A DNA stretch of 59,403 bases, counting the filler, from Sluysia triapertura (taxonomy: Eukaryota), in NCBI GenBank assembly GCA_046118255.1. It is 5 parts of 5 records of this genome, joined end to end, with 100 filler letters (N's around TTAATTAATTAA, not from the genome) between each part and the next. Parts side by side here need not be neighbours in the genome. Positions count along the whole stretch, not along the records: positions 25,997 to 37,223 come from JBJNIA010187146.1; positions 37,324 to 48,328 come from JBJNIA010190275.1; positions 48,429 to 59,403 come from JBJNIA010190674.1; 2 more parts are not named here. One strand, 5' to 3'. The position numbers and the translations under genes were made by a program. This document shows, piece after piece, positions 11,701-59,403 of the stretch. How positions within the stretch are numbered: position 1 is the stretch's first letter; each line of letters starts with the position of its first letter. The notes under the pieces are model-generated. The model did not search any database. It was not told the DNA's origin and saw nothing but the letters and a program-made list of their open reading frames with translations.

Positions 11701-12004
11701 AGCTAAAACTGATAAATTACTACATTTATCTATACTGTCTAATAATACATCCACAATAAAGTCTTTATTAAGCAACACTAAACTTAAAGATAAAATTTTG
11801 TCATTCAATTCACGGCGTAAATTTTTATATTCTAGTGAATTATTATATGTATTCCATTTTGAAAATACTTCATATAAATAACTTTCACCACTTGGTGGAA
11901 TTGATAATTTGACTTTGATATCTTCTTTCAATAATTCAGTAAATGTTTTAAACTAAAAATAAGATTACACTTAAAATATAGAAATAAATTTATACTTTAT
12001 GCAT
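2791..12004 (-). CDS. UTP20: U3 snoRNP/SSU processome HEAT-repeat protein UTP20, complete 5-exon gene (~2563 aa)
   Basis: Exons (minus): 12004-11996, 11952-11053, 11020-10838, 10193-6444, 5640-2791. All introns are GT-AG and phase 0 (43, 32, 644, 803 bp). The spliced N-terminus MHK|FKTFTELLKEDIKVK...SYLYEVFSKWNTYN resembles the UTP20 start. ILLKVSSFLKSEFLNIRKEAGQCLRDIIEQ...FTVHKIL matches the central UTP20 motif, and the basic C-terminus KRKRTIEDAGLAVSDQRMSARKKIKKRK matches UTP20. Confidence 0.9.
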
Positions 12005-17448: not shown

Positions 17449-17494
17449 TTCATAATTATAGATAAAAAGATGTGAAGTTACTTCATTAACTAAC

Positions 17495-36250: not shown

Positions 36251-36291
36251 CTGAAAAGAATAATAATTTTATATTTCTTATATAAATTAAC

Positions 36292-36695
36292 GTAAATGGA
36301 CTTACTATGATTTGAACCGGGACCACTCGTCTTATAGCTGCGCAATTCGATGCTCTGACCACTGAGCTATCAATTTTATTTTATTATAGTCAATTATACT
36401 ATCATTACTCTATGGCACTTTAGGCCTATATCCCAACATATCTCACCCAATTCAATTATGTTTATCCTCCAATATCTTGTAAATCATTTAATTCAACATC
36501 AGAAAGGTATTCGATATGTGGGCTCATCAAATGTTAGACTTCATAAAATGGATTTACAAGAAATCGAACCCAGGAACCCTCGCTTCACAGTTCGATGCTC
36601 TACTCACTGAGCTATCAGCCCGTCTAACAATTTTATTTTATTAGTCAAGTACACTATCATTATTCTAAATGGTACTTTAGGTCTGTATCCCAACG
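36292..36695 (-). mobile_element. TRIM-like non-autonomous LTR element with tRNA-like LTRs (Helenus-like): LTR - 93-bp internal region - LTR
   Basis: 5' LTR 36695-36532 (CGTTGGGA...AGCTCAGTGAGTAGAGC...GGTTCGATT...CCATTTT...GTCTAACA). Internal region 36531-36439 starts TTTGATGAGCCCAC (PBS position) and ends purine-rich GGGTGAGATA. The 3' LTR starts at 36438 (TGTTGGGA, A box, GGTTCAAATC B box) and is eroded near 36292. Confidence 0.7.
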
Positions 36696-37027
36696 TATCT
36701 CAAACATCACAATTCGCCGGAAGGGACTTATATTAACAAGTCTGTATGAAACAGTGAAAATAAACAATTTCAGTGTTCTTCAAAAAAGGCACGCGAAAAA
36801 ATTCGGACTCGTAAAGTGAGTCGCAGCACAAATTAATTGACGAAATTAAACAAGCAACGACATCACCCCACCGATCCAGAAGACTGACTGATTCCTTTGC
36901 AAAATCGAAAGTAGATTCTTGTTACCGTTACTGTATATTTTCTAGCAGAACAAATCTAGTATTACAATCATTTTCAAAATCGTAATATTTAATATTTTTA
37001 TTTATTACTCTACTTGCACAATCTATT

Positions 37028-37223
37028 CAATGCCGGATCCAGGGTTTTGAGCGCCTCGGAAAAACAAAATTTGGCACCCTTTCATACAAGAATATACAAA
37101 TTTACTGCGAATTAAAAAATAGTAAAAAAGGCAAAAGATCAAAATTACACAATAAAGAACTGTGTAAAAATTTATTTATTTAAAAAATAATACAATAGTT
37201 ATTTACTTACAAGCGATACAACA
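37028..37223 (+). mobile_element. hAT-like MITE end (CA.TGCCGGATCC...), cut off by the contig end
   Basis: Reverse-complement match to 39533-39714, which ends ...TTCGGCCCTG. Confidence 0.55.
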
Positions 37224-37323
37224 NNNNNNNNNNNNNNNNNNNNNNNNNNNNNNNNNNNNNNNNNNNNTTAATTAATTAANNNNNNNNNNNNNNNNNNNNN
37301 NNNNNNNNNNNNNNNNNNNNNNN
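37224..37323. other. Artificial contig linker
   Basis: Ns + TTAATTAATTAA + Ns. Confidence 0.97.
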
Positions 37324-38383
37324 TCTTTATTTTTGCTAAAGAATTAGAACTGTTGTTATTCATAATATTTAATTTATTTAATTTATAAGAAACAGAAAAA
37401 TACATTTTGTTTTTCTATTAAGTTGGGAGTGCCAAAAATAAATATGTTAAAATAGGGGCGCAACTTACAGAGTTTACGATAAATAAATCGAAGAGGCTAC
37501 TTTTGTGTTTTAATAAGCGCGTAAATTTTTTAATTATTCGTTTAGATTAGATACTTTACGTCATAAAATTCACTAGGAACAATTTTCAGTATTCATTCGT
37601 CGGCCCTCTAAGAGGCTTTGTTCGTATTCACCTGCCTAGTTACAGCTCCTGTTATTATTATTATCATTATTAATAAAATTATGTTTAATTGTATAATAAT
37701 AAATTATAAATTATTTTTTAAACTGTAGATAAAAAACACAATTTAAGTGGTTCCAGAAAAAGATAAAGCTTTTTTAAAATAAAATAATAATAACAATAAT
37801 AATAATAATTATAATAATTTCCAAAAATTATAAAAATTTAAAATACACAAATTATATTTTAACTAATAAATGTAATAAATAATAAATAACTTATAAATAT
37901 ATTTTTATTAAAATAATATATCAAAAATTACATAATAATACTTACATTTATTTTCGTTGTTTGATTTTCCGTTTAAATAAGTATTACTATTATAACTAAA
38001 AAAAGGGAATAAAATTCTTCATTTTATATTAAAGAAAATAAGCCAATGAAAATCGAATAAAATAAAGAAATAATTTTGTTGTAATTACTCTTTTTTTGGT
38101 GCTTTGATAAATATATAAAATTGATGTAAATTAATAAATACTTATTAAATTATTAAGTAATACTTATTAAAAATTTTTAAAAGCTCATCATCTTTTGATG
38201 CAATAAAAAAGCACAAATTGCATTTAAAAAATTTCATTTTATATTAAATGATTCATTTGTACAAATTTATCACAAATTCAATTTCAACCAATTAAAATTG
38301 TCGTTGAATGTGTAGTAGCCTAATTTTGAGAAAATAATTTCATAATTAAATTATAAATTATTTTTGTACCTTTATTATAAATA

Positions 38384-39023
38384 TGTTAGACTGCTTAAAA
38401 TGGACTAACTGGGGGCTCGAACTCGCGATGTGTTTTAAAATAATGACAAGTATTTACACTTATAGTATAAATATTAATAATTATATATATAATAATAATT
38501 ATATATAATAATAATAATATATAATTATATTATAATATATAATTATATAAAAAGGATCAAAATAAATGTAAATAAGAATTTATTATCTGTTGTTGCTGCT
38601 GCTGTTGATTGGTTATTTATTTATATACATTCATAACAATACATTACATAAAAAGAAAGATGGTAAGATTTGCAAACATTCATAAAGAAAATATCAATAT
38701 GGTTGCTGAGGTATTGAAGAATTCAAAGCGGGAAAAAGAAATAAACATAATATTATTTGCCAAAGAAAAGGAAACCGAAAGGTACGAGAATTAATAGTTA
38801 AGTGAGATAATGAAGGTAATGGTCTTTATAGATATTAAAGGAGGATTCTAGGGATAGCTTGATGCAGTGGTGTGCCAAACCAGTAATATCAGCTTTACGG
38901 AAACCTAACTTTTTAAGGACAATATCATTTTCTGGATCCCACTGAGCTCTTAGCTCCGTCTAACAATTTTTAGATTATTATAGTCAATCATGCCAAGTGG
39001 CACCTTTGGCCTATATCCCAACA
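38384..39023 (-). mobile_element. Solo tRNA-like LTR split by a ~510-bp insertion; 4-bp TSD AATA
   Basis: 5' half 39023-~38940 (TGTTGGGATATAGGCC...AGCTCAGTGG); 3' half ~38428-38384 (GAGTTCGAGCCC...AGTCCATTTT...GTCTAACA). AATA occurs at 38380-38383 and 39024-39027. Confidence 0.75.
38430..38942 (-). mobile_element. 5'-truncated RLE-type non-LTR retrotransposon (NeSL/Utopia/R5-like): ORF C-terminus plus 3' UTR
   Basis: 38942-38798 encodes WDPENDIVLKKLGFRKADITGLAHHCIKLSLESSFNIYKDHYLHYLT*, matching the NeSL/Utopia RLE tail GSWDP.ND..L..LG...S..IY..H. It is followed by ~370 bp of AT-rich sequence. Confidence 0.7.
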
Positions 39024-39532
39024 AATATATATATATCCTGTACAACTGTTCAATGAATTCAAAATTGAAAATCAAAATAAGATTTATCAAATAATTATTA
39101 AAATAACCAATCAAATAACTGTTAATTAACATTTAATTTTCACAAAATACTAATTACATAAAATAACACAACTATATAAATCAAAGTCTTATATATAAAA
39201 CCCTTCTTAGTACCGTAAACTCCCGATTGTACGGGCTAATTATGGGGAAGGTCAGCACAGATAATCCGCTTTATTTTTTTTAGATTTTATAAATTAAAAT
39301 CGATCATTTTTTATGAGGCATCGATTTTTATAGCAAGCAATAAATTTTTTTCTTTAATAATACCAAATGAAGGTAAACGGTTTACAAACTGATTTTCAAA
39401 AAAATTAATTTAATTAACTATGTTATTGACTTTTGACTTTATGGAGCACTACAAAAAATCTTGTAATGCAACAGGAATAGCATAAATTATTCCTTCGTCG
39501 CTCCAACTTCAGATGCATTCGTTATGTTTTTC

Positions 39533-39714
39533 CATATGTTGTATTGTTTGTAAGTAAATAACTATTGTATTTTTTTTAAATAAATAAATTTTTATACAGT
39601 TTTTTATTATGCAATTTTTATTTTTTTAATTGGCAGTAAATTTGTATATTCTTGTAGAAAAGGGCGTCAAATTTTGTTTTGCCCGGGATGCTCAAAACCA
39701 TACATTCGGCCCTG
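39533..39714 (-). mobile_element. hAT-like MITE end, second copy
   Basis: Reverse complement of 37028-37223; the terminus reads CAGGGCCGAAT on the minus strand. Confidence 0.55.
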
Positions 39715-40344
39715 TTTTCTTTCAGTTGATTTAAAACCCAACTTTGTGCTCATTTTGTCATCTTCATAACTCTCAGACTATCTTCTCAGATAGGCTCCTC
39801 TATTTCCATTGATCTCTACATATTCTATTATTTCCTATTTTTCTTGCTTGTATGAGTTTCTTTTATTATTAATAACAAAGTGTAAAAGTAAAATTTTTTC
39901 TCTTAAAATTGAAATGCGTCTTATCTAAATAAAAAAGTAGAAATTTTTCAAAAAAAAGTCAATGCATATTATACATTAGTGTGGCTTATACACAAGATTT
40001 TAGAATAATAGCGAATCAAATGCAAGCCAATTTGTGCAATGATGCATGATATTCAATAAATATCGATTTTTAAATTAAATGTCAAATTAAACATTTAGCA
40101 TTTACAGAAACAGTTATCTATTCATATAATAATACTTTTATGTCAATTAGTAATAATTATTTTTAATAAAAATGTCATGTAACAAAGACACGTGCACTTA
40201 TGAATCACGTGTCAGTTCTAAAATTAATTTAAGAATAATAAAACGTGTAAATATAATAATAATGATAATGGTAATAATAATAATAAAATAATTATTGTAG
40301 CTCTAATATTTAAATAAAATAATTTCTTATTTGAAAATAGAATG

Positions 40345-40764
40345 TAGTTTTCTACCATGGCATGGAAACCCTCTAGATATGAATCCCATAGGAAATCTGT
40401 GGGATATTGTCAAAAGGAGAGTTTGTACCGACAAACCAACCACCAGGACGGAGTTTACTGAAACCGTGATAAAAGTATGACATCACGATGATGAGATCAA
40501 AAACTTGTGCCCCAAGCTCATCCAGAAATTATTGGATAATAAAGGAAAGCAAACATTTACTGATACAACAGTTTGTACATATTTGATTTGTAGTAAATTG
40601 TGTTATCATTCTACATGAATAAAATTTATGTATGTTTTGGATTTACGTGTTTTTATCTATTATTTTACTTTCATCAGCATTTACATTTTTATACACTTTT
40701 GATTAATAGTTTCATAGTATTTTATCACAAAATGGTCTTTAGTCTAATAATTCGGTCACCACTG
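40345..40764 (+). mobile_element. Tc1 (DD34E) 3' remnant, second copy
   Basis: LPWHGNPLDMNPIGNLWDIVKRRV (cf. WPGNSPDLNPIENLW); ends GTCTAATAATTCGGTCACCACTG|TA. Confidence 0.8.
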
Positions 40765-40817
40765 TAGAATGAAATTTGCTATTTCATAAAAAAAACTTTA
40801 GCTTTTTTTGAATCCAG

Positions 40818-41238
40818 NNNNNNNNNNNNNNNNNNNNNNNNNNNNNNNNNNNNNNNNNNNNNNNNNNNNNNNNNNNNNNNNNNNNNNNNNNNNNNNNNNN
40901 NNNNNNNNNNNNNNNNNNNNNNNNNNNNNNNNNNNNNNNNNNNNNNNNNNNNNNNNNNNNNNNNNNNNNNNNNNNNNNNNNNNNNNNNNNNNNNNNNNNN
41001 NNNNNNNNNNNNNNNNNNNNNNNNNNNNNNNNNNNNNNNNNNNNNNNNNNNNNNNNNNNNNNNNNNNNNNNNNNNNNNNNNNNNNNNNNNNNNNNNNNNN
41101 NNNNNNNNNNNNNNNNNNNNNNNNNNNNNNNNNNNNNNNNNNNNNNNNNNNNNNNNNNNNNNNNNNNNNNNNNNNNNNNNNNNNNNNNNNNNNNNNNNNN
41201 NNNNNNNNNNNNNNNNNNNNNNNNNNNNNNNNNNNNNN
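40818..41238. other. Scaffold gap (Ns)
   Basis: Run of N. Confidence 0.99.
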
Positions 41239-41989
41239 TTTGTTCAATCGTTCTCCAAAAACTAATAAAATAAAACAAGCATTAATTATTATTTAATTAT
41301 TATCGAAATATTTGTATAATTAAATAATAATATTAACGGCTTAATAACGATTATTAATATTAAAATGAAAATGTTTAATGTAAAACACAAAAACAAGCTT
41401 TGTATTTATTTTTGTTGTGCTTTTATATTTTTAAACTAATGACGATTCTGAGTCTGTGATTCTCAATATATTCTAACTATATCACAAATTAGTTTTTTTA
41501 TGACAATTAATTTTAATTCACTATAAATCAATTACAAAATAATTCAGTTACAAATAAATCAATTGTAATATTCAATCCCAGGGGTTACACATCATAGATA
41601 TTAGTACCCAAATAATAATAAATTAACAATAAAAACTTGAGGCTCAACTAACCACACGAATAATTCGAGTAAAAATAAAATTTAGTCGACTTAATAAGAA
41701 ACTATAAGATTCCGTGAGTGTTTACCATTACTGTATTGAATCAGCCTTCTTACAGCAGAAGTAATAATTATTGTAATGATTTTTTGGTGTTAAATGATAT
41801 TTTTAATATGTTTCTTTGGATAGTGTTTAGATAATTGCTAGGAAGTTGGTTTTATTCCGACCAAATTTAAACATTAATTTCTGTCTAATTTCCATCTAGC
41901 AATTACCCAAAAAATAAACAAACTCTCACCTTTTAAAAATAATAGAATTAAAATAATAGTTATGACAATACATATATTGTTGCAGTAAT

Positions 41990-42350
41990 ACATCAACTTA
42001 AAATGAACTTATTTTCAATAATAAATTTTGATACAATGCAAAATACATTAACAGAACGTCACATGTCAGTTTCAATAATATATGAGCATTAATTTGATGC
42101 ACTTTTACTACATATTCTTATTATAATATATCGAAATTTAACTTTATAATAAAAAAAGTTAATTAAAACTTATAATTTTATGACGTGTCTCACACTAATA
42201 AATTTCATAATTGTATTATTTATGTGATGTCCGCTCCTATGCAAATATCATATGCACAGCTATTGAGTAAGATTGATTTTAAAACAATTTTAATTAAATT
42301 AATTAAATTTTTTGTAAAACCTGCGACACCCTTGCATCCACTTCATCCTC
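41990..42350 (+). repeat. Dispersed repeat C; provides the empty site for the LTR insertion at 57200
   Basis: Aligns with 56935-57510 (aacttattttca.taataaattttgatacaatgc; acact.ataaatttcataattgta; cctatg.aaa.atcata). Confidence 0.75.
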
Positions 42351-42529
42351 TGGCAACCCAAATATTTTTATGGAATGCCAATCTATTCGACAAAAACTTA
42401 AAATATCATGCAAAAGAGCTTTTATTCAATAAAACTTCAATTTAAATAATAAAAATAAAAAATTATTCAAAGCAAGAATTTATTATCGCTTTATAATAAA
42501 TAAAAATATTAAAGCTACTTATTTATTGT

Positions 42530-42910
42530 CCAATCACTCTTAAGTTTTTCAATCAAATAGTTTTTACACAAATCATTTGAGGATTAGGCTAACGGTGACT
42601 ATTTGTTTGACTTATATAAAATACAAGAAAATGATTAATGATTAGTTCTGCTCTACTCAATCTCTTCTTACTTAAATTACTTCTTACGTTAAAATAATAA
42701 TCATTAACTAAATGCATAAAAATGATGAATATATCATTAGCTTTTAGAATCTAATTAATTTTCACTTATTCACTTATTCTAAAACAAACCATTTTAAAAA
42801 CATCTACAATTTTTTAAATTCATAGCAATCATCTCATATTTTACTAATCTTCATTCCATCATTCTAAATATGATAATTTATTAAAATTTGACTTTGTTCA
42901 ATATTAACTT
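42530..42910 (+). repeat. Dispersed repeat D, shared with 55765-56230
   Basis: ccaatcactct, tttacacaaatc, catcattctaaatatga and ttaaaatt.gacttt.ttcaatat occur in the same order at both sites. Confidence 0.65.
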
Positions 42911-43059
42911 CATACACGTTCAAATTATATCTTTCTCTAAATTTTTGAAGATTTTATCATTGTTTTCCGAATCATTGTTATTTTTCATTAATTAAATTAT
43001 TTACGATTTTTAGAATTTATACTACTTCATATTTAAAGTTTCTATCAGAGAATTCTAAA

Positions 43060-43450
43060 GTTGTTTCGTGTTTCATAATATTTTCAGGGTTTTCTGGTAT
43101 TTTCAACTTCAACACACCAAGTAATTTTTATACACGTATATATGCTAAGTATTAACGTATCAAATTTCCCTTTGTTATCAGTAACAATAATTTCATTTAA
43201 CAAATATTTTAAAGGTTTTAAATACTTATCCATTGGTCTTATTATCACTGTGAATTCCGTATAGATTATTATTATGTCTCAATGAAATATTCATTTTGCT
43301 TTCCAAATTTTTTATTATTTCTAAAATATACTCAGGACTTCCGCATTATAAGCATTTGTAAATTATTGTCATGATTTTGAATTCTATTCTTGCTTTTATT
43401 GACAACCAATGTAATTCTTTAAGATAAGGTGTTGCACGAGATCTTTCTTT
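43060..43450 (-). mobile_element. L2/CR1 LINE remnant
   Basis: Shares the RIEFKIMTIIYKCL segment with 12690-12790 and 44500-44630; a KLLGV motif lies at ~43110-43127. Confidence 0.55.
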
Positions 43451-44329
43451 TAGATCAAGGATGAGCTGAAGGAAAATTATATCGCTAAATAAATATAGAA
43501 ATTATTATTCGAATTGTTAAAAAATGGTTAAACTTAGAAAATAATATCAAATAGTGTTAACATCACGTGTAAGTGCATGCATTGAGTTTGTATTTAATTA
43601 AAATCCTTAATTGCGTAAGACTGGGATCACAAATGATATAAAATTTATTTTATTATTGTAGTTTAAGCACATTTTAGCTAACCACATCATCTTTTATGAA
43701 GATTTAAAAAATCTATTAAAAATACGATGATGAATAAAATAAAAGTCGTATTATCTTTTACAGTTATTGTTTGATTTTAAATCTTGAAAAAGAATTTTAT
43801 AATCTTTAAAGAAGTACTAATTACATATTTAAATTTCAATAAATATTCATCTTTTTATGGATTAATCCTTTATTTATACTTTATTTAGTATTATAATGAT
43901 AATTACATAAATGAAATATATAATTTAATATTTTGTAAATATTAATATATATAATAATTGTAATGTTTTTTATATTTCGAATTAGATATTATTTTTTAAT
44001 AATATTATTAGATAAATACCATGTTTATTAATATTTATGTATTCATTTATTTATTTGTTATTGAAAATATTTATTAATTTATTTCGTTGGTTTAAAATAA
44101 TTGCATAAAAAAAGATAATAAAAATAATTTTTTAAGAAAGCGATTAATTTCCTCTTTAAACGTAGTGCGGTTTCAGAATGTGGTGTTAGAAGTGCTCTTC
44201 TTTTACAGAGTCGACAATCCTACAACGGTTCACTATTTTACACCGTTCTGTCAATTTTATATAACCTAAGATAACAATGATGACGATATTAATGATGACA
44301 ATAATAATATATTAATAATATATTAATAT

Positions 44330-45260
44330 CTAATGCAAAGCGCTTAGAATAAATCATTCACCATAATATTTCTGAAACAGAAAGAAATTTGCCTATTTAT
44401 TAAATATTTCATAATCTTCTAGCAGATTGACATTCTCTGATAACAGGTTGTACATATTTTTCAACATAAACGCTATACAACCGATTACCTGTGGATTCTG
44501 TATAGATTATTATTTCACAATGAAATATTCATCTTGGTTTCCAAATTTTTTATTATTTCTAAAAGAAATTCAGGACTTCCATAATGTAAGCATTTTTAAA
44601 TTATTGTTATGATTTTGAATTCTATTCTTCCTTTTATGTAATTCCTTAAGATACGATGTTACATAGATCTTATTCCAACATGGAGAATTAGTCTTGCAGC
44701 TTGATTAATTATTAATTGTTCATTTTTGAATTCCTATAACAACCTATATTCCCATCTAGTGTATTACCACCTACAATTAACTTTTTTCATTTGTTTTGAT
44801 ATTGTAGCTATTTCTAATACCAATGATTATAAATTCTGACTTTTCTTCATTGATTTTCAAGTATTTATTTCCAAACCATTTTATCAATTCATAGTATTTT
44901 CAAATTCAGTATATATTTGCGTGTCATGAACATATATATGGTATTTAAAATCATATGATTCAATTACACTTGAAACATCATTGCTATATATTATAAACAA
45001 TAATGGACCAAGATTTGATCCCTGAGGAACTCCATGCTTTACATATACCTCATTTGAGAGACACATTCTTTGTAGATCGCAAAGTAATATTTAATGATCA
45101 ACTGTATCAAAACCATCAAAACCATCAAAACCATAAAAACACAATTTAAAATATCATAATTTATTCTTAAAATAGATTGATACATTGTAAAACTGCTTTT
45201 TGAATCAATTTTGATAAGAGTGTTATATTTGATGCGGGTCTGTAATTATTTAAAAGCAAT
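44330..45260 (-). mobile_element. L2/CR1 LINE reverse transcriptase remnant
   Basis: HGVPQGSNLGPLLFIIYSNDV...YHIYVHDTQIY (RT domain motifs, with YADD decayed), followed by the RIEFK C-terminal segment. Confidence 0.85.
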
Positions 45261-45774
45261 AGATCACCATGTTTCAGATGAGGTAATATATAACAGATAC
45301 TTTTTCACTTGAAAGGAATTTTAGACTATATAATGAATTATTAATAATTTTCAATAAAATCGGAATAACTTTAGTCAACATTGAATTATTTTTAATATGA
45401 AAATACTTACAAAATAAATAACAATGTCATCAGTCAGTACAACTATAACAATGTAATTAAAATGATAAAATCATATATAAAAGAATGTATAGTGACTGAA
45501 CAATATCTTTTTTATATTTTCAAATAACATTAGCAGTTTGTGTTACCTTCACTTGTTACATCAAACCTCAAATAACAGATAACTTATATTATTTCTTGGC
45601 CATTTTATCCGTAGTTTAAGAGCTTACAGTAATCATTATGTGCGATTGATTTTGCAGATATATATTTTTCATTTTTTTCAAACGATAACAAAAACTACAA
45701 TGTTTAGAATGTTATTATATGGTTTGATTTTGAAATATCTCATATTTATTTAATAATTGAATAATTTGTTTCAG

Positions 45775-45878
45775 ACAAATGATGCTATTGGTGATCGTTT
45801 CACTGGATTTTATTTTATTACTCTTATTATACTAGGATCTTTTTTTATGTTGAATTTAATTCTTGGTGTATTGTCTGG
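45775..45878 (+). CDS. Voltage-gated calcium channel alpha-1 (Cav2-like), single 104-bp exon encoding domain I S6
   Basis: tttcag|[35 protein letters not shown]|gttag. FFMLNL is the Cav2-type variant. Exon length and phases (0/2) match the IS6 exon of vertebrate Cav1/Cav2 genes as I recall them. Confidence 0.88.
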
Positions 45879-47799
45879 GTTAGAATATATTATTATCATT
45901 ATTATTATCATAATTATTTAATTATAATCACCATTATTATTATTATTATTATTATTATCATTAATGTGAAGTTGCAAAACTTAGATAAGATATAAAATAA
46001 TAAAACAATATACAAAATAAAATTTCTAGAAATTTGAAAATTCTTCTGAAAAATTATTAATAAAAAGCATATAAAAGTTTTTTTATATAAATTAGGACTG
46101 GGACTTTGAAGGATTTTCCTGCACAGGAGCACCTGGAACAGCCATACTCAATAATTAAACTCCCACTGAATGATTTAATAATAATGCATTATTCAGTTAA
46201 ATATAATACAATAAAAACAAGAATGAAATTTCAAAGTAACTCTACGTTTTCGATGGCTATTTAATAAAATAAAGGTAGAACCACATGTATGTATTATACT
46301 ATATATGTATATTACATAGTATACAATGAAACACCTACGAACAACTATTATTCCAAAATGAGACATGTTTTGTATTATAAAACATTGATTACCACCCAAT
46401 TAGAAATTTATTGTAAATATTCTAGAATTTTATTTCAAAAGACGCTAAGAATATAATAATATATTAATTTATATTGCGCTCATATCTACCGCGAAAGTAC
46501 TCAAAATCATAATGAGAATTTATGATTTTTAAGACCATTATATCGTCATTTATTTATTGATCATGTTCATAAGATGAAATCAGATGTACCTAAATCAAAA
46601 ACTGGTGCATAAAATTTATCCGGTGCACGGCCATAATTATGATTAATATATAGTTTCAAATCTTAGTGAGAGACATGTGTAAAATTAAGCATATGGTTGA
46701 CACATTTGATATTGCTAAAATAAGATATATTTCGTCTATTACTTCATTTTTACTACATTTATGTAATATGAGATTTGAAATATAAAACTGCTTTATAAGA
46801 AAATCATTTTAAACAATTACTTTTATTTTTACTTTAAATATAAAATATCGTAGATAATTTTGTGTTGTGAAAGGTTTAATTAAAGTGTTATTTAAAGTTA
46901 TGGTTCCCTTAAGTGTTCCATGTATATTACTTATTAATGATGTTACTTATAAAGTAATTGTTAATGCATTTTATTTCCCCAGTATATTGATGAGAACGTG
47001 TTTGAAATTACTTTTCAGGTTGTGAAAATAAAACTTCATCAATATTTGCATGTACAACACAAAAGAATCTTAATCATTCCATGATGTTGGATCTTAAACT
47101 ACAAAAACAGTCGTTATTTTTGAGTCGGCATATTGAGATTACACAAGGCCCAAAACAACAGTACACTAATCTATCAATTATATAATAAAACTAATCAACA
47201 TCGGATGCAGCTACATTTCGTTTAGCTGAAGTTTCGAAATTATTCACTGGAAGCACACAGTAGTTCTCTTTTACATGATGATAAATCCAATCTGAATGCA
47301 ATAACATCGTTTAATTAGCAATTATAATTTTGTTATTATCAGTAGATCTGAAACTGCTTTCATTTATTACACTAAATGTAATCATTAATCGGCACTCTGT
47401 GCCAGAATCTCCAAACCGTTTGTGTCCTCAGTATTTCCACTTTCTTTTTATAGCACATTTGAAATATAGATATTCAATATTCAGTTCGAAATAATCCATA
47501 AATACACCTGTTACATATTGCTGCCAATGAAGTTTTCCGACTACGTCCTTTAAAGTTTGGAATGCTTAAGCATTCGTTTTATTTTGAAATATTTTAAAAA
47601 CTTTATTCTACCCAAGAAGCTACTTATGTTTTATATCTGCTTTAAATTTCGATTCATTGACTAAAATTATAATATTTTAATACTAAAGTATTTGAATCCT
47701 TAATAATTTCACCTAAAATTTCCTCGATTAGTTTGTTTATTGCCTTAATTAAAAACCTGAACCTAATATTTTAATTTTTCGTTAGACTAGGAGCCAGTT

Positions 47800-48201
47800 T
47801 AAGACATTGGGACAAAGTGGTTTTATAACGAACCGAAAGATTATTTCGTTTCATAAACCTGGTGCACCAAGAATGTGCTCGGAGAAATTCATAATTCCCA
47901 TATCCTTGGCCAATGTTTTGGCTTTGAGCTACATAGAGACTGTTGAAATACTTCTGCCAACTGATCGCATTTCCTTGATCCAATGCTTGAGATTGTCTTC
48001 AAACTTTGGCCATCTTAGAGTGTTTCCACGAAAGCTTTTACATGACTTTTTGGTCGGTCTTAGTTCATCCTCTTGCTTTCTCTATCTTCTAATCATTGAT
48101 TTATCGACATTGAATTCTGTTGAGGCTTTCCGATTACCATTTGCTTTAACCAATTCAATTAATTTTAATTTCCATTCTGTGGTGTATGAAGATCGTTTCA
48201 T
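47800..48201 (-). mobile_element. pogo-family transposase N-terminal remnant (Brinker-like DBD + CENP-B/Tc5 HTH)
   Basis: MKRSSYTTEWKLKLIELVKANGNRKASTEFNVDKSMIRR*RKQ...RWPKFEDNLKHWIKEMR, then a frameshift to SWCTRFMKRNNLSVRYKTTLSQ. Confidence 0.85.
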
Positions 48202-48328
48202 GACGAATAAAATTGAATTAATTTATTAAAACGTAAATTCACGTAACGTGCGAATAACCACAAACAACTTATTGTATCGTAAAATAAACTCAAAGTATTA
48301 TAATTAATTATTAGAAATTTAAAATATT

Positions 48329-48428
48329 NNNNNNNNNNNNNNNNNNNNNNNNNNNNNNNNNNNNNNNNNNNNTTAATTAATTAANNNNNNNNNNNNNNNN
48401 NNNNNNNNNNNNNNNNNNNNNNNNNNNN
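48329..48428. other. Artificial contig linker
   Basis: Ns + TTAATTAATTAA + Ns. Confidence 0.97.
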
Positions 48429-48440
48429 AACAACAACAAC

Positions 48441-48493
<53 letters not shown>

Positions 48494-48504
48494 TAACAAT
48501 AACA
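48429..48504. repeat. (AAC/AAT)n microsatellite
   Basis: Directly visible. Confidence 0.95.
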
Positions 48505-49498
48505 AGCTTCATGTGCAAGTTATTTTGTAAAAATTTTCTTATCAATATTTATATTCATAAGTAACATACAGAACACTACAAAACGAATAGGATGTATTAA
48601 TACATCATTTAAAATATGCGTAGTGCAAGAACTGGGGAATGCGCATTTTTGGCACACATCCTATAAAAATACAGCCATCCGTGCTATGTTTTATTATGTT
48701 TGAAATAAAGTTAAATTAAATTAATTGATTACCATTAATTTAGATAACCAACATACATCAAATTCTACGAAAGAGTTGGTTAGGTACGATTTATTATGTT
48801 TTTTATAATTCAGTATTAAAATATTTATTAAGAAATAATATTTTTGAAGTACGAATATGTATTACGTTAAAGAATAATAACGGTCATAAACGTACCCTAT
48901 CTTTTTTACATTTAAAGGTTTTATCAACTAAATATTTAACACTCTAAGATAAAAAAATAAATCTTAATATTACAATATGATTTTAAATATAAATATATAT
49001 AATTAATTAAAATACTATTAATGATGTTTTAATTAATATTTTGATTAACGTTTATTTACAGAAGTTACGGAATATTTTTATAAAAATATTTACAAATATG
49101 TAAGTGAAAATAAAAATAATAATAACAATTGTAAATTGGACGTTATACTTCTTTTACAAGTTTTATATTTCACAATCTAAACAATTTCAAATCGAAATTT
49201 TAGAAGAACTTTTTCTACCACCGACTAATGTCGATGTTTTTGCATATTTTTCAGCAATTCATACAGTTATCCATTTGATTTTAAGTGCGTGCTAATATTT
49301 AACGAAGGAGTACGTGTAATTATTTCTAGTATTATATGATGTAATTTTTTAAGGCAGTCTTTCGTTTGTCAGTATGAAAACATTATTACAATAGATTCAG
49401 TATTTACGTAGCAATGTTCTATATGTGTTCGAAAAATAATTGTAAATAATTTTGAATGATTATTTGTTTTTATATATTTGTAGTATTTTATCATTTAG

Positions 49499-52300
49499 AA
49501 ATAATTCTCACAGTCAAGAAACTGTTGTTGATTCAAAAAGAATGATAGTAAGATTCTTTATATTATATATATCTTTATTTTTGAATAATTAATTAATTTA
49601 ACAGCGTTTGTATAAAAGTAATTTTAACTATTTGCTCTCATTTGTTGCCGCATAAAAGTAATTGCGCTACACTACTTTTGCTCTCTTATATAGTTTTATG
49701 AATGTGCACTTTTTTTATAAAAACATTCAAATATAATAAAAATTGTTCAAACAGTCTAAAATGAAAATTTCAATGTATAATTTCAATTTTACTTTTGTAG
49801 TATTTAATTTTATTTATCTTGAAATGATTTGTATTTATATGTGAATAGATCGTATTATATGTTGCATAAACAAATTTGGCAAAGGATGCTAAAAATAGAG
49901 TGCTTCATTTTCCTAAAATAGTAATATCCCAAATATTAATATATCATAATTTATAATTATAATAAAATACAGAGTTAAGCGTAATAAATATTATAATTTA
50001 TATATAAATACAAAAAACTGAATAAAATTATTCCTTCCTAATTGTTTATTCAATTTTCATCGTAATACAAATAATTTGTTAATTTGTTAATATCAAACAA
50101 TAGTTGATATTATTTTACCTTGTAATATGTTTAATATAATATATCTTAGTAACTAATATATACCACAGAAAAGAAACATCTCAAAATAATCTTAAATCAA
50201 GGGTGAAGCTAATAACTCAAAAAGAGATTTTGAGGAACATTGAATGGAACTTGCTGTACTTAATGTAATGAGCAAGTAGACAGAATGTAAGTGAATGAAA
50301 ATGTAAGTGAATTAATAAAGTCAAGCCAATACTATAGAAGAAAATTAATATATGAAATTAGCCGCATATTAAAATGGTCTAGAAAAGGATTCAAAAGTAT
50401 AACCGTATTTGCTATCAATATAAACAAATTCAACTACCATGAATTACATATCTTATTTAAGTATTATTGATAAATCTAAGTTGAAAATATCATCATTTGA
50501 CATTATACTGCTTTCAATTCAATAACAAATTCAATTTTAGAAATCAATTATAATTTATAAATAAACACGCCATTCAACTATTAACTTTTTAATCGCTTTA
50601 TAAATATCATCACCTTATTCATTTTCTTTAAAAGCATCCTTTATAATAGCTTCAAATTTGAAAGCGACGTTATTACATTCTAAAAGATCGTTATTTAAAT
50701 TATTTCGTCCGATTTCAGTAACTGAGTTGGCATAGTAGGTACCTCATTTGCTGATGCTTCAAATAACAGTTCTTGATGTTGTTTGTCCTACCTACAACAT
50801 AACGAGGACTATTAAATTCGACATTATTTTCTAATTAATCTAATTTAAAAACTTTATCATTCAGATTATCATAACTATAAACCTGTAATTTTTGAAAATA
50901 CATTAACTACATAAAATCAAAATTCATTTGATTCTATATCGACGATTACTGTTTTCTCAAATTTCGACGTTATCTTTTTAATAGAAGTTAGATATTTATA
51001 AATTTCTTTTGTTTTGTTAACAAGTGAAATAGAATCTTTTAAAGTACTTATCAATATTAAAATATCTCAGTTACTTTATACAGTCTGTCAATTATTTCGT
51101 TTAAGTCTTTTAACTCTACCGCAACCATTGCTGTCGAAAATCAATGATCCTGGTGATAAATTGAATAACTGCTCTCTTCCGACTTAAATATCATAATTTA
51201 TGCAGGCGTTGTTACGGAAGTTAGAAACAGTTTTCATGTATATTTTAGCGTTTATTTTGTTTGTTTGTGTTCTGAAAATTGAAATTTTGCCATGCCTACG
51301 CCAACCAGGAAGTATAAGTCAGCAGACGTTCTAAAAGCGTTAGAAAATGATGAATTTGATATTTATGAACTGTCCGACGATGATGACTCTATTACTGCTG
51401 ATGTTGTCATACTGAACAAAAACGGAGCTGATCTGAATCAATGTTCTTGGCGTGACGCAGAGCCATGTATGACTGAATTGTGTCTTTTACACGGCTTTGT
51501 GCATGTTCTGCTCGAAGAAATTGGTGTATCACATGCCAGGTGCTGCTTAATAAGTTAGCCATTAGTAATCTATAAACTGGTTCATCCAAATTTGGCAAAA
51601 ACAATCTGGCTGCCATAGAGCTAAACCATTTCGCGAGCATTATTAAAGAAAATGTGGTTATATAAAGACGAATATGAATTTATTTAGAAATTGATAGTTT
51701 ACCTGAACACCTAAAGGTCTTATTATATTAAAACAAAAATAAAATATTAAAAAAAGTTTTCCTTTAATTTAAGTTTGGAACTTTAAATTGCCAAAATTTT
51801 TACAATAGATGTATATTTAAATTTAGATACAAAATGATTTTATTATGCACTATCTTACAGCTATAATTTATAAAGATAATAAATAAAGATAGCTGAAATT
51901 TTTTTTACTGTTTTTGTTATAAAAGTGAAATTAAGCAAACTATATTTCAAGTGCAAACGAAAGCCGGCAACACCAGAAGAATTACTTGGTCTTAGTGGAA
52001 TCACACGTGAATTTTCATTTTCAAACGTCACTCCAGATAATACTCCAATTTCTGGAACGCCGACTTCAGCTGTGTTTCCAACAAATTATACTGCGGGACC
52101 GAATTCAAGGCCTTCATCAGTCTCAAATAGCAATACCGCGACTAATTCAATTGTATCACCACCTGTAAATCTTGATCACAATAATAATTCAAATGTCTTT
52201 TTTAATCGCAATACTGGTGGAAAAGCTATGTCAAATACTTTATCATGTGCGCAAACTCCGACAGAAACATCGAAAGGTCTTGTATCAGATCAACAATTAA
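49499..52300 (+). CDS. Two putative internal exons of an unidentified gene (S/T/P-rich, many TP/SP sites)
   Basis: Exon 49499-49547 (NNSHSQETVVDSKRMI|gtaaga) joins in phase 0 to exon 51952-52300 (CKRKPATPEELLGLSGITREFSFSNVTPDNTPISGTPTS...|gtcagt). GC is elevated and the frame is open. Confidence 0.55.
51110..51560 (+). mobile_element. piggyBac-like remnant (terminus plus acidic transposase N-terminus)
   Basis: TTAA|CTCTACCGC terminus, followed by the ORF MPTPTRKYKSADVLKALENDEFDIYELSDDDD. Another frame has Cys-rich CACSARRNWCITCQV, resembling the C-terminal cysteine-rich domain. Confidence 0.45.
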
Positions 52301-52929
52301 GTCAGTTTTTATTATTTTATTGTTTGATATTTTAAAACAAGAATATTGATATAATAAAAATTGCGATACTTATGTAGAATATATTATGAGATGCTAGCCT
52401 AACAGGCCTAACTAGAGTGCATAGGGGGCAAAAATTGGAAGATATGCAAAGTAATATTTGTATTTATTTAAATATCGTGTAGGATATCCAACAGTTACTA
52501 GTAACTTCTGCTTTAAACAAATACTCACTCTAAAGTGACAGTTCATGAAACGGGTTCTAATACCTGCTCTCATAATGTGCTAATCAAAATAAACTATAAT
52601 CATTTTTAATTAATAATTTTGGCGTCAAAGAATAATCTTATTGAAATTGTCCTATCCAAAAACTATAAAAAATATTTTATGTATGAATAATTTAAAGTAA
52701 ATATGTAAATCACAGATAATCTTTACTTAAGTGCGTTCCCTAAACAAATACAAAATAAAAAAATATACTATTTGTATAAGATAAATCTCATAAGTTGTCT
52801 AGTAAACAATTCTTACACGTATATTTAAATAATATCAATACCCAAATAATTCAAAATTTTATTAAATAAATTAGTATATTTTATATACTGACATTTATTA
52901 CAATTAATTATATAAATAATATTTCTTTC

Positions 52930-54350
52930 TTTTACTGAAAATTGATGATAATAATAATCGATTTCAAAATTTTCAAATGGTTAAACGAATATTTACAATT
53001 GCTTTCAAAAAAGAAATTAGCGATTTTATATTGCAAGGCAAAAATGGAGAAATACATGATAAATCGATGTATTAGCAGTGGTTTAGGAACAGGTACAATA
53101 TTATCACCAAATGTAATCACATATTTTATATGATTATATGATCATATATGAATCATTGGGAAGTCTGGAAATTTGGAATTTCCACGAAAATAAGACCTAG
53201 GATGTGTTGTAGTTTAATATTTTTGTTGTTGATTTTTACATTTATGAAAGCCAGGATTATCTTATCATATTTAAAACATTTTGTTAAATCTTTTATGATT
53301 TTACATTTAAATCTTTTATGACGTATTACAATTGAAAGAGTATAAACAACAATTGAAAAATAATCAATGAACAAAATTTTATTTCTAAGTAACAATATGA
53401 AAAATTTAAGTCCATAGGTTCCTTTCCATGTATGCCAGATAGCCCAGTCGATGATTTAACGTCTAAAATAAAATAAGGAATTAATTTATAAATTGAGCAA
53501 TAAAAAGAATTAATTACGTTATAATTGACCACGATGTGCTGTTCTAATTGACTATGATCTCCGCGTCAGAACGCTGTTTGAACCTGTTGTAATACATGAT
53601 ATCATTGCCTTTATTAATAATTAGATACCTTTTCATATTTTGACATAATATAGATTCATGCTTGATGGCAACATTATTATTCTCATTCGGTTCAACCAAT
53701 AAATCCTTGATTTTTTTAATTTTCATATGATACAAATTTTCGGCATCTCGCGCAGTTCGTAATTCTGTTCGCTTCTTTCGAATTCTCGTTCTGTTTGGGT
53801 TATGTACACTATATTGCTTGTATAATTGACAAATCACTGTAACAGTATCGAGAAGTTCTTTTGGATTTTGTTCGGTGTTCTTGTACGGTTGGAAACATGC
53901 ACGTTCCGTTGGAATAATCACATATACGATATACTTTGTCTCAACTTCACAACTAATTACGCCTTCATAGCTGACCGTGTCGTTAAATATAATTTCATTT
54001 ATATTATGTGGTTCTTGGTAATGGCAGTTACTAAGTAATTTTGTTATATTTCGTCTAATTTTCATAGATAAGCAACATTGACCATGGTCTAAATTTATCC
54101 GCTGTTTGCGCCGATATTAATCTTTGATAATGAAATATATCCAATTGTAACGAAGTCTCGCTCATTCACTAATATTGTAAATTTACATGTTTGCTGAATC
54201 ATTGGTGATGATAACTTGTTCGATTTTTTGTAATTTAGCACAAGCTGCTTCCACTTCTGACAAGATCGCAAACAAATTAGTCAAAATAATTCATCTTTTT
54301 TCCTAACATTACTGGCATACATAAACTCCTTTGGTGTTTTTATTTTTACA
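52930..54350 (-). pseudogene. Decayed, frameshifted coding tract of unknown family
   Basis: A chain of overlapping ORFs (173, 68, 80, 62 aa) in shifting frames on one strand, with coding-like composition and no clear splice structure. Confidence 0.4.
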
Positions 54351-55764
54351 AAGCTGAAACTTAATTATAAATTTTTGAGACAAAATTTTACTTTTGAAAA
54401 TTTTTGTTGTACCACACGAAACTGATTGGACGTCCAACCAGCAAACGTATAAAGTTAATAATTAAAATATCACTGATTGGACGAACAATACTAATGATTA
54501 AAAGTTAGTTATTTGAGAAAGGAACCGTCAATGTTGACGTAAATTTATACACAATAATCAGTAATGTCAGCATTGATTGTCGTAGTTACTGATTTTCGAC
54601 ATAATTATTAATGATTTATAAAAATAATGAAATGGTTATATTATTATTATTATGAACGTTAAATAAAATAAAATTACATAAATAAAATAAAATACATAAA
54701 TTCTTTGAAAGAAATGTCTGTACACGAGCTTTCTGTTATTTCTTAAATTTCTCAACATATTTAAAAGTTAGAGGTAAGGAAGTAACATGATATTTAATGA
54801 TTAACTTACAAGTTTTGATGCTACCTCATACTCATGTTAAGATAGTATTACTAGCTGAAATGTTATTGAAATGTAATTGATTGAGGCCTAAATACCTTAG
54901 AATATTATTATTCTTGTGCTGTTTTAGATACTTTAGATACTTTTTAATGTAGTTTAATGATTTAGAATGTTATTATGGTTTATATTTTATGGGACTGTGG
55001 ATATAAATTGACTTTAGTAGATGAATTGTTTTGGCGAATGTAGAAGAGATAAATGTGATAATGTTAAAATGTTAAAGGATATGATTTTATGTACAATGTG
55101 TTGGTTTGATGATTTTGTAATATTTTTACAAAATTTGAAGGGTTCACCACCACAACAATATATCTGCTTATTATCAATATTAAATACGTAATAATATGTC
55201 AAAAAGGAAACCAGAGGTAACACAACATTTATTAAAATTAAAATATCAGTATCTACAAATAATTAAAGTCGATAACAATTATATTTATGTCTTGTCAAAT
55301 ATCTTTACTTAACATATTAACCAAAAACTATGAAAATATAATTTGTGCAGGGAGTCGTCCACAATGCAATTAAAATCACTAACTAAAAGTTAAAAAATTA
55401 AAGATCAAACTGAAATATGTAACTTAAGTCAATTTAAATAATGTGAACAAGGTGTCTCCCTAACGCAATTAAAATCAATTCATCGAAAGCAAAAATTAAA
55501 CAATTAAAAAGATTCTCAAAATTTTAATGACATAGAGTTATAAAATCAAATAAAAATCGATTTATCCTTGCATTACCTTATTCAAAATTAAAAATATAAA
55601 TTATCTTTATTTTAAAGGTATAAAATAAATAGAAATATTAGGCTAATTTGAAATTATAAAATAAACAAAATTGTTACCATCATCATGAATTTTCCATTTT
55701 CATTAAATCATCATTTCGTTGTTGTGAAGAAAAAGATTCTATGTACTCATTTTTATATCTCTTT

Positions 55765-56800
55765 ACCGTCCAATCACTCTAAACTTACAATCAGGAATTA
55801 TCTTTACACAAATCTAAAACAACTTTGACACTTACAAGGTAAGACCTTTCAAGCAAAGCAAAACAATTTGATTAACAATCAACTCTCTTTTTTTTCTTCT
55901 ACTCTACTGGGTTTATTTTCTCATGAATTCATTCTTACATTAAAATAGCAATCATTATTATTATTATTATTGACATACCTAAAAATAATTAATTTAACTT
56001 TAGTTTTTACATTTTAATTAATTTTCAATTCATCACACTCAATTTCTTAATGGAAAATGTTTAAAGTTCTCATTACCGAACGAACCATTTCACAAACATT
56101 ACAATCACATTTCGAATTCTCCTGTTTCATAACAATCACTCCATACTCAACTCATCATCATTCTAAATATGAAAATTTCATCATTTTACATTAAAGGTAA
56201 ATTAAAATTCGACTTTATTCAATATAGAGGCTTGGTCAAGCCTTATCTTCATCGAAAGGACTCTTTAAAACACACACATTCACAATTACAGTTTTAACAT
56301 ATAATTCCTCATTCGAAAGTTATTCACACAAACGTAATTTTTCTTAATTAAGTAATTAATGAATTAATTATTTTAACTTATTTTATTCTAAGTTTAAAGG
56401 TTTTAATATGGTTATAAAACTATTAAATACTTTATAAGGTTACCCAGGAGGCTCTCACTTTGATTCCTTTTTCCACTTTTTTATTTCAATTATCAATGCA
56501 TTAAATTTGTCTTCAACATAATTAGCCATAATTTGATTTTTTGAACATTTCAAAGGTTCCAAACATTTTACAAAGTTATTCGAAGGTATCAAAAGTTCAT
56601 TAAGGTCTCAAGAGTCTTAAAATGTTCCAACAAGATCTCAAATGATTTCAAGGTTCCGAAGTTTGAAGGTATCATTACACTTCAAAACATCTTTCCAAAC
56701 CTTACTTAAGTCTTCATAATGGTCTCAATACTCTACAAAAATCTTTGGAACTCCAAGGTATTCTTCGGTTACTAAATGATGATAAACATTTTACTGTTTA
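55765..56800 (+). repeat. Composite of dispersed repeats D (55765-56230) and A (56590-56790)
   Basis: By-eye alignment to 42530-42910 and to 25997-26160 / the reverse complement of 180-380. Confidence 0.65.
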
Positions 56801-57199
56801 TTATTCTTGCTCTAGAAATATATAATTAAGTATATATTATCATATTTCAGATATTTTATATCATTTTTTTCTTTTATATTTCAAATTATGTACACTAACT
56901 GGACAATTCCAACTTAAATTTAATTTAAATCTAATCAAATATAAAACTTATTTTCAGTAATAAATTTTGATACAATGCGTTAATGGTACATCACACGTCA
57001 ATTTCAATAACATATTTGGAATATTTCTTAATGAGCATTAATTTACTATGTACACTCATAATATATATAAAGAAAATTAATTTAAACTGATGATTTTTAC
57101 GTTATCTATGTTGACGTATTTCTCAATATTTCGGTGTTCGTAACACTGATAAATTTCATAATTGTAGTTTATTAAATGTGATGTTTGTCCCTATGGAAA

Positions 57200-57355
57200 T
57201 TTTGGGATGTAGGCCTAAGGTGCCATTTAGTACAATTGAATAGAGTAATCTATAAATTGTTAGTCGAGACTGATATCTCAGTGGTAGAGTATCGAACTGC
57301 GCAGTAACCGGTCCCGGGTTTGATACCTAGTCAGTCCATTTTCTGAATTCTGACA
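57200..57355 (+). mobile_element. Solo tRNA-like LTR (156 bp) with 4-bp TSD GAAA
   Basis: GAAA|TTTTGGGATGTAGGCC...ATCTCAGTGGTAGAG...GGTTTGATACC..TCAGTCCATTTT...TCTGACA|GAAA. It sits in repeat C, whose uninterrupted copy at ~42236-42255 reads cctatgcaaatatcatatg. Confidence 0.85.
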
Positions 57356-57783
57356 GAAACATCATACGGAAAGTTATTGATTAAAAGTAATTTACAAACA
57401 ATTTTAATTAAATTAATTCATAAATATACTTTAAAAATTTTTTGTAAAACTTTAGAAATCATTGATCCCTTTAATTTTAAGGTGTCATACCCTTGTAATC
57501 ATTTTATCTTCTGGCTATCTCAACAATATAACATGCATTAAAGTCCAAGACTTAGTCTCTATCGAGTGTTGCATGATAAAGAGTTTTGTAACTTTATGTA
57601 TACCAAAGATATTTTTAAAGATTTACTGATTAACTTAATGCATATTATAATAAATATTTTTATAATTTTAAGTTAACTAAAGGAATTTTTAAAGATTTGG
57701 TTATTATAATACCGCATAATTTTAAAGACAATAAAGATTTTTGTAAGTTAATGTTGACTAAAAACATCTTAAAAGATAATAAA

Positions 57784-57910
57784 TGTTGGGACACAGGCCT
57801 AAAGTGCCACAGAATAATAATATTATAATCGACTAAAATAAAATAAAATTGTTAGAAGGGGCTGATAGCTCAAACTGCGCAGCGAAAGTCGATTCCCGAT
57901 TGCATTTTTT
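57784..57910 (+). mobile_element. Degenerate copy of the tRNA-like LTR
   Basis: TGTTGGGACACAGGCCTAAAGTGCCA...AAATTGTTAGAAGGGGCTGATAGCTC; internally deleted, 3' end lost. Confidence 0.75.
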
Positions 57911-58640: not shown

Positions 58641-59403
58641 TATAAAATACTTGGAATCATGGTAAAATATTAAAGTACTTTTGTTAATTAATTTAAGTAA
58701 AATTTGTTTAATTTGATAATTCAATAAAAATGTTTGATCATGGTAAAATAATAATGGATTTCGTGTATAATATTGAGTTTTAATGATGAAGTATTGCTAA
58801 ATACGTCAACGTAGATAACGTAAAATTTAGTTATTTTAATTAATTTTATAATTTAAAATTAAAGATAAATATGTTCAAATGTCTAAGTATTAATAAAGTA
58901 TATATCAAATTGATGCTTATAGAGAGATCAATTCAAATCTGTTACTGGACTTAATGCACAAGTATTAATGAAGAATACTCCTGTGAAAAATAAATTTATT
59001 TTTTCATTAATTTTATCGTTAAATTAAGTTGACAAATTGCGTTATTATCATAAAAGCAATGTAAAAATCATTTTAAATTTTAATTAGGTGATATTAAGAA
59101 GATAAAGGTATTGTTTGCCACAAATCTCATTATCTTTAGATAATTGGAATGATAATGAAGTTGAACATAGATGGAAATTGCATTCGACATTTAATCGGCG
59201 AAATTAGTCTGCTTATTGCAGACTAAAAGAAAATCGACAGCTTTAATTTCCATCTTGTTAAATTTCTTATTTTTGTGAGGCTGGGGATGGGAAAACTTTG
59301 ATTATATTGAACATTTTGATTATATTGATTATATTATAAATTATATTATTTGATAATTTATTTTATTTATCTTATTCATTATTTATTTGTTAGCTATAAT
59401 TAT

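Follow-up and report, generated by a model that had tools for sequence, protein, structure and literature searches.

What kind of mobile element carries a tRNA-like gene in the middle of its repeated ends? The question is raised by five related repeats in a 59,403-nucleotide stretch of the Sluysia triapertura assembly GCA_046118255.1 (hereafter the window), which consists of five AT-rich contigs with a GC content of 20-33% per 2 kb, joined by N spacers. The original prediction, made from the sequence, had placed five related long terminal repeat (LTR) copies on three of these contigs and assigned them to a Helenus- or Cassandra-like family; all five were recovered in our analysis. We conclude that the family is very probably a Helenus-type miniature non-autonomous LTR retrotransposon (a TRIM, for terminal-repeat retrotransposon in miniature), with the order LTR, primer-binding site (PBS), internal region, polypurine tract (PPT), LTR. 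Support for this assignment comes from the fixed TG start and the TG..CA ends, from an empty site that reveals a 4-bp target-site duplication (TSD), from a high-copy internal domain that opens with a TGG-type PBS, and from a tRNA-like module internal to the LTR. The family is new, and its kind was described in 2024 as Helenus (Kojima, PMC10886601). Our comparison with that paper covers most of its main text and portions of its supplement, and statements on the other papers cited by PMC number likewise refer to portions of them.

Five LTR copies of one family

The copies lie as follows (c1 to c5).
36285..36438, minus strand: c1, 3' LTR of a two-LTR element (36292-36438 in the original prediction), with a 13-bp deletion at 36367 and an eroded 3' end
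36532..36695, minus strand: c2, 5' LTR of the same element, 164 bp, with a fixed 5' end at 36694
38384..39023, minus strand: c3, solo LTR with TSD AATA at 38380-38383 and 39024-39027
57200..57355, plus strand: c4, solo LTR with TSD GAAA at 57196-57199 and 57356-57359, sitting in another repeat
57784..57910, plus strand: c5, LTR with an intact leader, a decayed tRNA half and no recognisable end or TSD

A 26-letter degenerate pattern of the 5' end matched five times at no more than one mismatch, compared with no match in 100 dinucleotide shuffles, and an nhmmer search of the window with a four-copy profile returned the same five copies, c3 as two pieces, and no sixth. Together they make up 1.4% of the window. 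Their pairwise identities are 60-77%, and they are old, decayed copies: in c5 only the first half of the A box survives, and the B box and the LTR end are gone; in c1 the tRNA start is short by 13 bp and the TTTT is reduced to TTT; and in c3 the middle of the tRNA module is replaced by ~510 bp of foreign, partly simple-repeat DNA (38430-38937) with no clear match elsewhere in the window. Leader, A and B boxes and ends had been attributed to each copy, which holds for the family and not for every member. The leader start TGTTGGGA is exact in three of the five, c2 reading CGTT and c4 TTTT, and the terminal TCT[A/G]ACA is found in c2, c3 and c4, the end of c1 being eroded and that of c5 gone.

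Further copies came from contigs of run X1, which were placed on positions 36200-36800 (601 bp) at 80% likeness; 8,294 of them fit. The rows listed from this comparison number 6 of 452 for loose ends, 40 of 63 for letters, 15 of 112 for joints and 8 of 8,658 for contig records. The 13-bp deletion of c1 is private to it, the missing letters being present in 154 run X1 contigs.

Two leader subtypes can be told apart, that of c1, c2 and c5 being 11 bp longer than that of c3 and c4. A variant leader also occurs at 36412, where 111 run X1 contigs differ over the first ~12 nt and still start with TGTTG.

Fixed ends and an empty target site

Exact 4-bp TSDs had been noted for two copies, and both GAAA (c4) and AATA (c3) hold up; these are the two solo LTRs with both ends intact (2/2), and the chance of a 4-mer repeating across a random span of this window is 1.0%. 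For c4 the duplication can be examined directly, as the DNA flanking it is another repeat that recurs at ~42006-42319 and there includes the following site.
42192..42319, plus strand: empty paralogous site of c4, with one target copy at 42242-42245

When c4 and one TSD copy are deleted in silico, the flanks align straight through this paralogue, which has a single 4-mer at the junction (CAAA vs GAAA). The left flank reaches a score of 61, compared with 28 for the best of 300 shuffles, and stops at 42245; the right flank reaches 70 (best shuffle 41) and begins within the same 4-mer. The empty site thus fixes both ends of c4 and the TSD length of 4. The host repeat itself is unclassified, AT-rich and interspersed, with copies at 56945-57440 and 42006-42319 and a part at 58788-58847 (reverse), the copies being ~68% identical. 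We also considered c4 and c5 as a single element and rejected this, since c4, a member of the short-leader subtype, is bounded by a TSD of its own and has an empty site of its own.

The predicted TG..CA ends are likewise seen. All three copies with intact 3' ends finish in CA, and the TG start is fixed amid diverse flanks in run X1, where loose ends pile up at 36438 (168 contigs, agreement 0.42) and at 36694 (124 contigs, agreement 0.45); the low agreement among these loose ends indicates a fixed start with many different flanks. The inverted termini measure just 4-5 bp. This last observation bears on a Ginger-type non-autonomous DNA transposon that captured a tRNA. Ginger-type transposons have TGT..ACA ends and a 4-bp TSD, as this family does, and they also have long terminal inverted repeats, whereas here the inverted ends are minimal and the unit is repeated directly on either side of an internal domain that bears a PBS. 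We regard such an origin as scarcely credible.

A two-LTR element with an abundant internal domain

On the minus strand c2, 93 bp of spacer and c1 together form a ~410-bp two-LTR element, the inner part of which contains the following features.
36439..36531, minus strand: internal domain, 93 bp, non-coding and high-copy (run X1 depth and bridging contigs)
36520..36531, minus strand: PBS; most copies start TTTGG, and the window copy deviates at 36527
36439..36453, minus strand: weak PPT, 11 of 15 purines with a GGGTGAG core, adjoining the 3' LTR

The internal domain is single within the window, has a longest stop-free stretch of ~22 codons, and folds no better than shuffled sequence (z = 0.57). 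Its summed depth in run X1 is 66,948-705,412 compared with 17.3 in the flanks, a ratio of 4,000-40,000, and contigs 2-8 of the 8 listed (of 8,658) pass from LTR through spacer into the next LTR. A host exon was rejected as an identity for this domain on account of its high copy. As a rough estimate the family is abundant, with at least hundreds of similar copies, because the 107 contigs at 36527 average ~370 times the flank depth, depth in run X1 contigs not being equal to copy number.

At that same position 680,310 of 683,385 of the depth, in those 107 contigs, differs from the window copy and restores TTTGG directly after the LTR. The CCA end of a tRNA is complementary to TGG, and the majority TTTGG makes this a canonical TGG-type PBS. 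Animal Helenus internal regions begin with TTGG or TTTGG (Fig. S2, PMC10886601), and the first 10 letters of the PBS match the tRNA-Trp PBS from bee in that figure at 9 positions, by eye, so that the nearest candidate primer, judged by sequence, would be tRNA-Trp. At the other end of the domain, depth over the PPT region is ~350,000, and fish Helenus internal regions likewise end in GGGTGAG (PMC10886601).

These results bear on whether the repeats are instead a tRNA-derived short interspersed nuclear element (SINE) or dispersed tRNA pseudogenes, with c1 and c2 as independent insertions 93 bp apart. The tRNA-like module with A and B boxes and a T-run is what such an origin would supply, and the likeness of c1 to c2 does not exceed that between unrelated copies. 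On the other side stand the conserved leader before the tRNA part, the TG..CA ends and the 4-bp TSDs; the SINE behaviour that had been named as contrary evidence was not seen, as the ends stop at TCT[A/G]ACA in all three intact copies, the TSD is 4 bp and no A-rich or simple-repeat tail follows. As the spacer is in addition high-copy and, in other contigs, runs into LTRs, the SINE or pseudogene origin is largely refuted, and we consider it highly improbable.

The two-LTR element probably lies in an intron of a VPS13-like gene. c1 lies upstream of the acceptor site at 36251, at a distance of ~35-40 bp, and the nearness of this splice acceptor may account for the erosion of the 3' end of c1. Just upstream of c2, positions 36736-36982 are GC-richer and contain open frames of 56-62 codons on both strands, with no Pfam match.

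The tRNA-like module and its possible role

As originally proposed, the tRNA part is internal and not a 5' head, a conserved leader of 68-82 nt preceding the module in all five copies. In c2 the parts are as follows.
36622..36695, minus strand: non-tRNA leader (putative U3), from the alignment
36549..36621, minus strand: tRNA-like module (putative R region and RNA polymerase III (Pol III) promoter), with the A box at 36603-36614 and the B box at 36562-36570
36545..36548, minus strand: TTTT directly after the module, resembling a Pol III terminator

Both the A box (TRGCY..YGG) and the B box (GGTTC) reported for the LTR are present. The c2 module aligns with the Rfam tRNA model over positions 1-71 of 71 at 25.7 bits (E 0.45), short of the gathering score of 29, and ARAGORN called no tRNA genes. 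The majority letters of run X1 give the acceptor stem that had been read from the copies, GGGCTGA/TCAGTCC followed by A and TTTT, and, by hand, all 7 acceptor pairs (one of them G-U), a D stem of 4 bp and all 5 pairs of the T stem. The anticodon arm is broken, its stem retaining ~3 pairs, and c3 has one both-sided change in the acceptor stem (alignment, by hand). At the 23 majority differences that were checked, the window copy has gone from GC to AT in 15 and from AT to GC in 7, a bias that fits decay. The c2 and c4 modules do not fold as cloverleaves, with stabilities of z -0.04 and -1.19 relative to shuffles.

Of the eight tRNAs compared from PMC10359600, tRNA-Cys looks nearest to the module by eye, which we take as a lead only; a BLAST search of phage tRNAs gave generic tRNA-Asn, -Lys and -Ile matches, uninformative on the parent tRNA. 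Self-priming by the tRNA-like 3' end of the LTR was rejected, as that end plus CCA matches the PBS over just 5 letters (by hand). The modules at 57268-57339 and 36549-36621 fold as a rod in which the stretch following the D arm is paired over 7-9 bp with the B box, with a stability no greater than that of shuffles.

A possible life cycle can be drawn from the transcription scheme described for Cassandra, with which it coincides, and from general LTR biology. Pol III would start at the tRNA-like module of the 5' LTR, would sometimes read past its TTTT and would then stop at that of the 3' LTR; the product would be a read-through RNA of ~340 nt whose terminal repeat is the tRNA-like module itself. 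The module would then serve as R, the ~17 nt after it as U5 and the leader as U3. This RNA would be packaged, reverse-transcribed from the CCA end of a host tRNA, tRNA-Trp being nearest, and integrated by an autonomous Gypsy helper and its integrase, the tRNA-like part acting as promoter and as neither tRNA nor primer; recombination between LTRs would leave many solo LTRs. Pol III transcription and a borrowed integrase, as the original prediction had it, thus form a plausible working scheme by analogy. Among the 31 open reading frames of the window that were scanned, none encodes an LTR-element protein.

The role of Pol III is where a second explanation has to be weighed, namely that the TRIM is driven by RNA polymerase II (Pol II) and that its LTR carries the head of a tRNA-SINE as a passenger with no part in transcription. 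A TTTT right after the 5' module would halt most Pol III transcripts ahead of the PBS, and Kojima notes that Pol III use has not been validated for Helenus (PMC10886601). The TTTT after the c2 module is the sole run of four Ts in the 332 nt from the c2 tRNA start to the c1 end; the scarcity of such runs is not significant, as many controls have none either (background windows 379 of 3,500, T-matched windows 1,029 of 5,039, shuffles 26%), which counts against our interpretation, and with 11-26% of controls lacking such a run it adds little to the case for read-through. Against the passenger view, the A and B boxes, the acceptor, D and T arms and the TTTT belong to the family majority, and a leader of 70-80 nt would be tight for a poly(A) signal together with a Pol II promoter. 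Taking these together we find Pol II drive unlikely.

Relation to known TRIM families

Animal Helenus elements, of the TRIMp3 class, resemble the window family in their TRIM size, a tRNA-like module in mid-LTR, box A, a GGTTC box B and a T-run, as well as in a TTTGG-type PBS, 4-bp TSD, solo LTRs and a non-functional anticodon arm (PMC10886601). The sizes observed here (LTR ~160 bp, internal region 93 bp) fall within the reported Helenus range (LTR 104-323, internal 43-621; PMC10886601), and at ~410 bp the whole non-coding element agrees with the length of about 0.3-1.3 kb that characterises Helenus. The T-arm region of the bivalve families Helenus-2_SaGl and 2_CGi is close to that of the window family by eye, and a Trp PBS exists in Helenus-2_SyJa too. 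Unlike animal Helenus, the window family has an AT-rich leader, a weak PPT and a TGTTG start that is rare among animal families, and its host may belong to none of the six phyla listed. Four motifs taken from the module and the PBS had no match in the named Helenus families in the portions of the supplement compared (PMC10886601), where line breaks may hide matches.

Other miniature elements share parts of this anatomy. Cassandra and Ajax (5S-derived TRIMp3) also have a small-RNA gene within the LTR, which is derived from 5S rRNA and not from tRNA, and the TSD of Ajax is 5 bp. The ta-TRIM elements of taeniid cestodes (PMC4558846) are animal TRIMs with many solo LTRs, an 8-9-nt PBS and mostly 4-bp TSDs; they differ in a Leu PBS and a ~590-bp internal region, and no tRNA-like LTR is described in the portion of PMC4558846 compared. 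CsRn1-clade Gypsy elements have a tRNA-Trp PBS beginning TGGTGA and a 4-bp TSD (PMC3630058, PMC2582038, PMC3587641). Unlike the window family they are autonomous, 4-6 kb long and protein-coding, and none was seen in the window; by analogy this clade is our best guess for the helper.

Several observations weigh against a Helenus-type reading of the animal kind. The LTRs of the two-LTR element are identical at 110 of 145 positions (76%), no closer to each other than to c5 (95/125 and 104/136), and the full element has no exact TSD, with GATA on the left and TATA at the eroded right end. As the LTR pair is no more alike than unrelated copies and an exact TSD is absent, this element is old or recombinant. 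The PPT is weak, below published tracts, and the TSD length is based on two copies. Among the 6 of 452 loose-end rows listed for run X1, no pile-up appears at the 3' (CA) end. Run X1 is moreover perhaps the window's own source, in which case it adds copies and is not an independent sample; a single run X1 contig equals 36200-36371 without any difference.

The remaining points concern fungi, and with them an explanation in which a TRIM of the same anatomy is driven by Copia through half-tRNA-iMet priming, as in rust-fungal Helenus, with an unusual 4-bp TSD. Fungal and Selaginella Helenus have TGTT(G/A)..ACA termini, which the TGTTG..AACA termini here resemble, a TTTT near the LTR end and TGAGCCCA in the PBS, and eight letters of the PBS match the half-tRNA-iMet site of the Copia-driven fungal elements (PMC10886601). 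A TGTT start is itself typical of these fungal elements: of 102 matching LTRs (rows 86-102 listed), 97 are from fungi, 1 is from a plant and 4 are from animals; its presence in those 4 animal LTRs also means that it is not peculiar to fungi. The half-iMet reading of the window copy is weakened by the majority letter at 36527, as the majority PBS starts with TTTGG and not GGTTA. In addition, the TSD of Copia-driven Helenus is 5 bp (PMC10886601, section 3.6), compared with the 4 bp fixed here by the empty site. Because of the eight shared letters Copia drive stays alive at low odds, and we judge it quite unlikely.

In literature from 2024 on, judged by title, we found no further description of the Helenus/TRIMp3 class beyond citations, and a literature search with the PBS motif gave no related paper by title among the matches listed. 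Exact-pattern scans of metagenome contigs, prokaryote genomes and viral contigs gave no match. A new Helenus-type family widens a class known from one paper. The structural proof is unusually clean, with an empty site, fixed ends and a high-copy internal domain, and the family seems abundant in a highly divergent animal genome, in which annotation would wrongly label it as SINEs or pseudo-tRNAs.

A palindrome at the anticodon position

At the position of the anticodon, three copies have a self-complementary stretch.
57297..57304, plus strand: 8-nt palindrome CTGCGCAG at the anticodon position of c4
57875-57882: the same 8-nt palindrome in c5
36339-36344: a 6-nt form in c1

In c2 the palindrome is decayed, and the majority letters at 36585 and 36587 (85% and 75% of run X1 depth) restore CTGCGCAG. 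It was noticed post hoc, and the chance of an 8-nt palindrome in a random 9-10-nt window is ~1%. Under the hypothesis set out below, it would probably have grown out of CTGCAG in a tRNA-Cys parent.

By eye, palindromes of at least 4 nt occupy the anticodon position in 28 of 29 fungal (rust-fungal 25/26, Agaricomycete 3/3), 31 of 56 animal (21/31 and 10/25 in two sets) and 1 of 1 plant (Selaginella) Helenus LTRs in the portions of PMC10886601 covered, compared with 32-34% expected in a random 9-nt window. Ten of the 21 in the first animal set are fish LTRs with CATG at the loop edge, and the ctenophore, sturgeon/paddlefish and brachiopod families covered have no palindrome at this position by eye. 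The tally is weak, as there is relatedness among the families and any AGN anticodon yields CTAG by itself; the CATG and CCGG forms break the invariant U33 and are harder to explain by an anticodon.

Palindromes drive dimerisation of Ty1 RNA (PMC7969010). By extension, the anticodon loop might have been remodelled into CTGCGCAG as a kissing-loop signal for dimerisation and packaging of the TRIM RNA. This would be a convergent, undescribed feature of Helenus that arose independently here; the palindrome would rank among the longest of its kind, and the host phylum would possibly be one from which Helenus is not yet known. We put this forward tentatively and think it rather doubtful. The main text of PMC10886601, in the large part compared, makes no mention of a palindrome, dimer, self-complement or kissing interaction, and no work on palindromes or dimerisation in TRIMs was found in the literature, judged by title. 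If true, the palindrome would explain why Helenus elements keep a tRNA scaffold with the wrong anticodon arm, and would offer a first handle on Kojima's question of how a helper recognises a TRIM without LTR homology.

Host and genomic surroundings

The host is inferred to be an animal; homologue searches directed at its lineage gave no match, and Atlas searches yielded family names only. An extremely divergent, intron-poor UTP20 gene lies at 2794-11952 on the minus strand (Pfam UTP20 and UTP20_N), and the best relatives of a piece of it among 1.84 billion proteins (phmmer) are 6 unnamed proteins, 23-38% identical, a divergence pointing to a fast-evolving, poorly sampled lineage. VPS13-like exons are also present in the window (VPS13_M, E 1.8e-7, under the curated cut-off; Atlas 0.94); a PDB search with the VPS13 and UTP20 pieces returned nothing useful. 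Exons for an ACAP-like ArfGAP with ankyrin repeats occupy 17489-18693 on the minus strand, with human ACAP1 as the top PDB match (E 2e-9). Finally, the window contains broken mobile elements of other kinds: a non-LTR reverse transcriptase (Pfam RVT_1), a Tc5/pogo-type transposase with a Brinker-like domain (weak Pfam matches) and a two-copy fragment that we take to be Tc1-like, which between them account for 44887-45090, 43349-43501, 47774-48222 and 40307-40682 / 35035-35327.

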